From sequence record MK327928.1: a stretch of DNA of 64,000 bases; one strand, written 5' to 3'. Positions 32,070-33,013 of the stretch are shown here, one piece after another. Every line of letters starts with the position of its first letter. Position 1 is the first letter of the stretch. The notes under the pieces were generated by a model. That model ran no database searches, was not told the origin of the DNA, and worked only from the letters and a program-made list of their open reading frames with translations. The stretch is from Escherichia phage vB_EcoM_G2133. The position numbers and the translations under genes were made by a program.

Positions 32070-32252
32070 CTACAACATAAGCAATTTCACTACGTTTGCA
32101 TAGGTGTTGATTTCTTTACCATCGCCACCTAAGAAAGAATACCCATTACGTTTTAATGAGCCAAAGTCTTCCACATCACCAATGAAAGCTTTAACTTTAA
32201 ATTTAGAACCTTTGGCATCTGCTTCAACGATAAATTCTTGATACATTTTCAT
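32070..32252 (-). pseudogene. Truncated IP-like gene (capsid-targeting leader, then early stop)
   Basis: Starts MKMYQEFIVEA but terminates after 60 codons; the downstream sequence stays open in another frame. Confidence 0.4.
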
Positions 32253-32258
32253 TTTTCC

Positions 32259-32672
32259 TTAGTAAATTGATTTACCAAAGTATTTGTACCAAGTCGGACG
32301 TTGAGCAATTTTTTCATCTAAGCGTGCTTGACTTATCGCAATGGACGCTTCGGACGGGACATAATTATTACGAAATTCTACAGGAATGTCGGAAATATCC
32401 TGGACTGTCGTGTCCTTGATTTTGAAACCACGTTTCAAACATTCAGCGATTAGCTCGATTTGACGTAAACGTAAAAATTCGAGTTTGTCGTAAAAGAATG
32501 TTACGTGACCTGTGCCTAAGATAAATGTTGGAGAGATTTTAAAATCCTTTACACGTTTACCGTTTTGAACATGTTTACGGACTGCACCAAATACGCGTGG
32601 TAATTCACGATACTCAGCCATAAGATGTTGGTCGGTCAATTCAAAAACAAGTGTTAAATTGATACGGGTCAT
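32259..32672 (-). CDS. denV: Endonuclease V (pyrimidine-dimer DNA glycosylase) DenV
   Basis: Start at the ATG at 32672; MTRINLTLV...[19 protein letters not shown] matches T4 endonuclease V. Confidence 0.88.
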
Positions 32673-32699
32673 AATTTCCTCCAAGTAGTTGATGAATGT

Positions 32700-32729
32700 A
32701 TAGTATCAAAACCCTTGGAGGAAGTAAAC
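32700..32729 (-). promoter_or_regulatory. T4-type early promoter upstream of denV
   Basis: GTTTAC, 18 nt, TACTAT on the minus strand. Confidence 0.55.
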
Positions 32730-32731
32730 AA

Positions 32732-33013
32732 CTATTTTTCTGAAGCGCCTGAAATATATTTTTCAAGACGTTGTTTCATCAGCGAGCCGTTCTTAGCGAT
32801 TTCTTCCGGTTTATCGCACATACGCAACAAGGCTTCAAGCTTAACGATATCACTGGTGCGCTCAAATTTGCGAGTATCTATCTTACTAGCAAGTTCAGAA
32901 ATACGTGTTAATAGACTTTCAGCTTCAACCAAAGCTGCACCTAGCTTAGTTGCAAATGTGTCAGTAGCTTCGTTAAGAATAGATTCTGATAAAAATTCAC
33001 TATATGTTTTCAT
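32732..33013 (-). CDS. Additional IP-like capsid-targeted protein
   Basis: Start at the ATG at 33013, overlapping the e stop; N-terminal [10 protein letters not shown]; paralogous to ORF 40220..40477. Confidence 0.6.

Follow-up and report, generated by a model that had tools for sequence, protein, structure and literature searches.

An Ip5-like gene and a frameshifted RB69ORF125c-type gene in the variable interval between e and vs.8 of a T4-like phage

Gene content of the locus

The window, which is the whole 64,000-nt stretch of Escherichia phage vB_EcoM_G2133 (MK327928.1) that was analysed, is part of a Tequatrovirus (T4-like) genome with glucosyl-hmC DNA. A 3.2-kb query around the locus matched 839 phage records with a top identity of about 96%, and RB32 and RB33 were the nearest to a 24.5-kb stretch on the right side (96%). 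The genes of the locus are arranged on the minus strand in the order nudE, e, a 93-aa ORF, denV, a 60-aa ORF, ipIII, ipII and a vs.8 homologue, with denV sitting between the two ORFs and ipIII, then ipII, lying beyond them. The positions of the two ORFs (32732..33013 and 32070..32252) and their leader-like starts, as given in an initial annotation made from the sequence of this DNA, agree with our own reading of the sequence. The genes referred to in this study are listed below.

3901-5103, minus strand: DNA alpha-glucosyltransferase, 400 aa (Pfam AGT, E 2e-237)
31009..31311, minus strand: ipII, 100 aa, 94% identity with T4 IPII (phrog_7857)
31353..31931, minus strand: ipIII, 192 aa, 92% identity with T4 IPIII (phrog_5341)
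32070..32252, minus strand: truncated 60-aa ORF, the 5' part of an RB69ORF125c-type gene followed by 8 out-of-frame codons (phrog_2667)
32259..32672, minus strand: denV (endonuclease V), 137 aa (phrog_1183, E 1e-60; Pfam Pyr_excise)
32732..33013, minus strand: intact Ip5-like internal head protein gene, 93 aa, e-adjacent subtype (RB69ORF127c type; phrog_3499)
33010..33498, minus strand: e (T4 lysozyme), 162 aa (Pfam Phage_lysozyme; endolysin in the annotation of relatives)
33536-33991, minus strand: nudE
39912..40145, minus strand: 77-aa leader-bearing internal protein, 100% identical over 77 aa to bas37_0260 of KarlGJung (phrog_8111)
40220..40477, minus strand: classical Ip5, 85 aa, with the leader MKTFKEFATK, directly downstream of 57B and of the same sequence as RB14 Ip5

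The genome holds six genes of the internal-protein (IP) type, including one dead gene, two paralogues and one known McrBC inhibitor. The inhibitor is the 77-aa protein of the ipI locus, whose counterpart Bas37_0260 was described as an injected McrBC inhibitor in a 2025 preprint (bioRxiv 10.1101/2025.11.20.689424), and the paralogues are the classical Ip5 (40220-40477) and the 93-aa protein, which share 48% identity. No family was found in Pfam or NCBIfam for the 93-aa or the 60-aa ORF, and literature searches on Ip5, RB69ORF127c, RB69ORF125c and virion proteomics returned nothing specific.

The intact gene adjoining e

The 93-aa protein matched phrog_3499 ('internal head protein', E 2.9e-46) over the complete profile, positions 1-85 of 85, and aligned with named Ip5 proteins, at 48-52% identity to those of T2, RB14 and RB70; on both grounds it belongs to the Ip5 family. 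Classical Ip5 proteins (T2, T6, RB14, RB70; 'Ip5 internal head protein' in UniRef), members of the same PHROG, align with it in full length at 48% identity and share with it the KLGxAL-EAE-L..RI-ELA and EIAKNGS-MK-RLE blocks and the MKT(Y/F)xEF leader. Unlike the classical genes, however, the 93-aa gene adjoins e and is not located in the ipI locus, its product is longer by 8 residues at the C-terminus, and residues 8-10 are the canonical L-S-E where classical Ip5 has ATK. Compared with its orthologues, namely RB69ORF127c and the e-adjacent genes of ime09, JS09, VR20, W143 and JoYop (88-99%), which have the same position and the same overlap with e, the protein is not distinctive; the sole residue difference from the common allele is T36 in place of A36.

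A total of 496 phage records were matched by tblastn with the 93-aa protein. About 232 of them are at or above 95% identity (97-99%), always beside e, and carry the labels 'internal head protein', 'ip5' (VR20) or 'RB69ORF127c' (a note in the ime09 record, by which RB69ORF127c from the record deposited as AY303349 matches the protein). A further 258 records with about 48% identity represent the classical Ip5 gene of the ipI locus, for example in RB14, T2 and PP01. Both paralogue sites are found in only about 12 of the 496 records, and carriage of both, as in the window, is thus uncommon. In BYEP02 (H31; protein P0019) the e-adjacent gene seems to be split, as tblastn matched it in two pieces and the annotation has a 49-aa fragment, so that this otherwise intact family also appears to be disrupted on occasion.

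When 1.84 billion representatives were searched exhaustively with HMMER, the Ip5-type family fell into four clusters at 50% identity, and no distant relatives of the 93-aa family were detected. Purifying selection acts on the 93-aa gene, with dN/dS of 0.04-0.15 against five relatives. We therefore regard it with high confidence as an Ip5 family gene that is intact and maintained by selection, and the same confidence applies to the identities assigned to both ORFs. The AlphaFold model of the protein (pLDDT 76.5) consists of three helices at residues 4-44, 53-66 and 69-89. A PDB sequence search and Foldseek against PDB gave no significant match, and the only match from Foldseek against the viral models of BFVD was a member of its own family; the predicted fold thus gives no functional clue.

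Putative expression signals around the gene are as follows.

33512..33532, minus strand: two exact copies of the T4 late-promoter consensus octamer TATAAATA, 14-34 nt upstream of the e start codon
33010..33013, minus strand: ATGA overlap of the e stop and the Ip5-like start, read from the sequence and the same in the annotation of W143, JoYop and ime09
32689..32733, minus strand: early-promoter-like cassette upstream of denV (repeat family D4)
31960..31988, minus strand: sigma-70-type promoter-like site TTTACG-17-TATAAT with an upstream TG, in front of ipIII

The start codon of the 93-aa ORF (33013-33011) overlaps the TGA of e (33012-33010), which bears out the initial description of the ORF as coupled to the e stop codon. 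No late promoter was found directly before the 93-aa gene. Late transcripts covering e and the Ip5-like gene would probably start at the octamer pair, whose position is suggestive only, as the count of the motif over the whole window is that expected by chance. Judged from the octamers and the ATGA overlap, the Ip5-like protein would be made late, together with the lysozyme, by coupling to e. In front of denV, the minus strand is predicted to fold into a stable RNA hairpin (32685-32735; -20.7 kcal/mol, z -3.1), where the Shine-Dalgarno sequence of denV (GGAGG) pairs with an upstream CCUCC and the promoter-like GATACTAT element lies in the loop. A similar hairpin arrangement has been described for T4 e, which is translated only from transcripts starting inside the hairpin. 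The leader region next to the ipIII promoter-like site recurs at 40162-40186 (repeat family D9).

The frameshifted gene downstream of denV

The 60-aa ORF matched phrog_2667 ('internal head protein', E 5.7e-12) at profile positions 1-60 of 101, and its residues 1-52 matched about 200 records by tblastn with 90-96% identity. The sequence match is to the RB69ORF125c family (phrog_2667), whose members number about 216 records and are 86 aa long when intact; the window has this gene at the corresponding place, immediately after denV, but broken by a stop after codon 60 of a frame that would be about 86 codons when intact. The two ORFs had initially been put forward as new IP variants. This does not hold, as the 93-aa protein is present at 97-99% identity in the roughly 232 GenBank records mentioned above and the 60-aa ORF is a broken RB69ORF125c; both genes are common, annotated and already known members of two known IP families.

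Two features mark the break.

32095..32097, minus strand: frameshift site, a run of 3 A against 4 A in intact relatives (alignments with JoYop, W143 and Pu-Krd-SF5)
31993..32097, minus strand: out-of-frame remnant with the original stop codon, coding for the 34 C-terminal residues KRSEIAYVVASPKVDVDDIGYDFNNFGIISGGKA, which P0009 shares without a difference

At the break, the window reads TATGCAAACG and the relatives read TATGCAAAACG. With one A added back, an 86-aa ORF is obtained that aligns end to end with intact members of the family. The 34 codons of the remnant (31996-32097) show no further damage and are identical to the intact homologue P0009. According to these alignments, the 60-aa ORF is a known IP gene broken by a very recent 1-nt deletion, with the C-terminus of its intact homologues still encoded out of frame, and its initial description as a decayed IP gene proved apt. 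The predicted structure of the 86-aa family was poor (pLDDT 55) and for this reason was not used in the fold search. Three strands are predicted within the lost part, so the 60-aa product is probably non-functional.

Breaks of this gene are not confined to the window. An independent +2 insertion lies 12 nt upstream of the window's break in Pu-Krd-SF5, and five database proteins of the RB69ORF125c type (P0006, P0007, P0010, P0011 and P0012) are frameshifted in different ways. The gene is also split in UFV13 and Lutter, and FL23 and SF2-1 are listed among the frameshifted assemblies. At least six different frameshift positions were counted across independent assemblies, some of them derived from short reads, which suggests either recurrent loss of the gene or a stretch prone to error. 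About 4 of 60 sampled phage records have the gene in two pieces, and real inactivation therefore seems to be common.

Alternatively, the 60-aa ORF of the window would be a sequencing or assembly artefact in which one homopolymer A was lost from the consensus of an intact 86-aa gene. This would fit a change of a single base inside a run of A, with an undamaged stretch of 34 codons downstream that matches intact homologues exactly, and A-run indels occur in this gene of other database records too. However, homopolymer errors would be expected in longer runs than 3-4 A, and the large conserved structural genes of the window are all intact at their canonical lengths (gp5 575, gp6 660 and gp7 1032 aa), from which it follows that the assembly is not error-prone in general. 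The spread of frameshift positions over independent assemblies and the proportion of split records also speak for a real deletion, and we consider an artefact unlikely. Programmed frameshifting at the break was rejected as well, since the three-A run is too short for a slippery site and most relatives possess a plain intact ORF.

Leader, cassette site and predicted function

The first 10 residues of T4 internal proteins suffice to package foreign proteins; in the IPIII leader, targeting depends on Y4 and F7 and processing on residues 8 and 10, and the prohead protease gp21 cuts after L/I-x-E (PMC9026906). Y4 and F7 are present in both the 93-aa and the 60-aa (MKMYQEFIVE) ORFs, together with the gp21 motif in the forms L8-S-E10 and I8-V-E10, respectively, and the capsid-targeting leader first recognised on the two ORFs is thus confirmed by its critical residues. 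When the six frames of the 64 kb were screened with a strict leader pattern, five matches only were obtained, all of them at the starts of minus-strand ORFs in the two known IP loci. A sixth, divergent leader is that of the classical Ip5 (40220-40477). The leader-coding DNA forms a direct repeat of 42-46 nt at all six gene starts. A repeat of this kind could spread by recombination, and the likeness of the leaders might then be a by-product of recombination at the repeated DNA, in proteins that are not packaged. This appears very improbable, because paralogues with only 48% identity have conserved the leader as a protein sequence, and because carriers of a leader that is sufficient for packaging in T4 should be packaged if they are made late.

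Processing after the leader glutamate had been anticipated, and an L/I-x-E motif is indeed present at residues 8-10 of the 93-aa protein. However, E10 is variable in the Ip5 family (alignment A4, columns 8-15), with LTV in VR20 and ATK in classical Ip5 at residues 8-10, whereas E15, in an L/I-x-E motif at residues 13-15, is nearly invariant. Cleavage after E15 would therefore be at least as likely as after E10, and Ip5-type proteins may have a processed N-terminus unlike the one in IpII and IpIII.

The interval between e and vs.8 contains no IP gene in Bas37, two in T4, two in ime09, four in the window and five in W143. The locus is thus expanded relative to T4, as originally proposed, and from the gene orders below the interval is best described as a variable cassette site for IP genes.

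Bas37 (KarlGJung): e-denV, without an IP gene
T4: e-ipIII-ipII-denV
ime09: e-Ip5-like-denV-Ip4
ZCEC14: e-Ip5-like, with the T4 order after it
VR20: e-ip5-denV-ip10-ORF125c type-ip7
Window: e, Ip5-like gene, denV, RB69ORF125c-type gene, ipIII, ipII
W143: order as in the window, with one extra 104-aa ORF

IP polymorphism at the e-adjacent locus and at ipI is long established, and the first description of polymorphic IPs is reportedly that of Repoila et al. in 1994. The window adds no new IP family and illustrates how the cassette site gains and loses genes. Copies of an early-promoter-like cassette (GTTTAC...GATACTAT) at 30966-31010, 32689-32733, 39869-39939, 40167-40235 and 40495-40565 border the IP and denV cassettes of the two IP loci. 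These repeats and those of the leader-coding DNA are plausible candidates for the recombination substrates of cassette shuffling. Such a putative repeat-driven movement of IP cassettes would agree with part of the literature on modular shuffling.

The precedent for function comes from IPs with known targets. In T4, the GmrSD type IV enzyme inhibited by Ip1 is distinct from those inhibited by Ip2 and by Ip3, and none of the three protects against the target of another (PMC12373910); growth of T4 on ECOR17 requires ipIII. Each of the four IPs whose target is known blocks a type IV restriction enzyme. The alpha-glucosyltransferase encoded in the window shows that this phage glucosylates its hmC DNA, which is hence a substrate for enzymes of this type. 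For the Ip5-like protein of the e-vs.8 interval we propose that its leader would direct it into the prohead core, that gp21 would trim it after L/I-x-E (at E10 and/or the family-conserved E15), and that it would be injected into the host with the DNA, where it would most likely bind and block one subtype of type IV (modification-dependent) restriction enzyme. Late expression, packaging, the cleavage site, injection and anti-restriction are all inferred for this protein. To the explanation as a whole, which comprises the cassette site, the intact Ip5-like gene, the broken RB69ORF125c-type gene and the injected inhibitor, we assign a probability of roughly 0.7. The type IV anti-restriction role taken by itself is more tentative, at slightly under even odds, and we offer it as the best conjecture on what the 93-aa protein does, given that the four IPs with known targets all act on such enzymes.

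The proteins IPI*, IpII, IpIII and Bas37_0260 resemble the 93-aa protein in their leader and small size, and like it they are accessory and encoded in the two cassette loci. Beyond the leader, no homology between the 93-aa protein and Ip1-3 or Bas37_0260 was found in sequence or fold (PHROG, PDB and Foldseek), and PHROG cross-matches between IP families are limited to the first 13-43 residues. The fold of IPI* is alpha/beta (PMC3012670), whereas that predicted for the 93-aa protein is all-helical. Moreover, ip4-10 gave no reproducible inhibition in tests against eight active GmrSD variants, a screen that may or may not have included the e-adjacent subtype (PMC12373910 section 10, Supplementary Fig. 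9). The anti-defence role initially suggested is therefore a reasonable guess by the precedent of target-known IPs, but one for which that screen yielded no reproducible partner; likewise, the proviso that the two might turn out to be known IPs with characterised targets applies in its first part, as the IPs are known, and not in its second.

If the 93-aa protein were packaged and injected to act on a host function, or on a defence outside type IV restriction, the outcome of the screen would also be expected, as would the absence of any likeness in sequence or fold between this protein and the four target-known IPs. Alt offers an example of a leader-bearing head protein with a different role (PMC9026906). 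However, every small IP whose target is known acts on a type IV enzyme, and only a small part of the diversity of these enzymes has been screened so far, so that a target of another kind seems unlikely. Still less probable is a mainly structural or charge-balancing role in the head core or on the packaged DNA, with no part in anti-defence. IPs are abundant core components (PMC9026906) and their lysines contact DNA phosphates in T4 heads (PMC3012670), but the mature 93-aa protein is near neutral, with a pI of 6.3-8.1 against 9.7 for IpII and IpIII, and T4 and Bas37 assemble normal heads without the gene. The patchy family with its four clusters at 50% identity is also what would be expected of an accessory gene. 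A role as a DNA mimic was discarded, since the mature form is near neutral and not strongly acidic.

The injected type IV inhibitor remains the reading that we prefer for the 93-aa protein. As a long shot, it may be extended to both genes: loss of the RB69ORF125c-type gene might be selected because some hosts sense the injected protein and respond with an abortive defence, and the two Ip5 paralogues might be subtype-specific inhibitors of two type IV enzymes not yet paired with an IP.

Host immunity encounters the injected IPs before any other phage product. As every target-known IP blocks a type IV enzyme, a catalogue of the IP families without assigned targets is a useful list of candidate inhibitors, and this genome, with six IP-type genes that include a dead one, two Ip5 paralogues and a known McrBC inhibitor, offers a favourable natural setting in which targets might be matched to Ip5-type proteins. 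A 210-aa ORF (38662-39294, minus strand) with an HNH-like motif (HIDGNNKNH...CPNCH), probably a homing endonuclease, was also observed; it is flanked by the e.x genes on one side and, on the other, by the ipI locus with the second paralogue.
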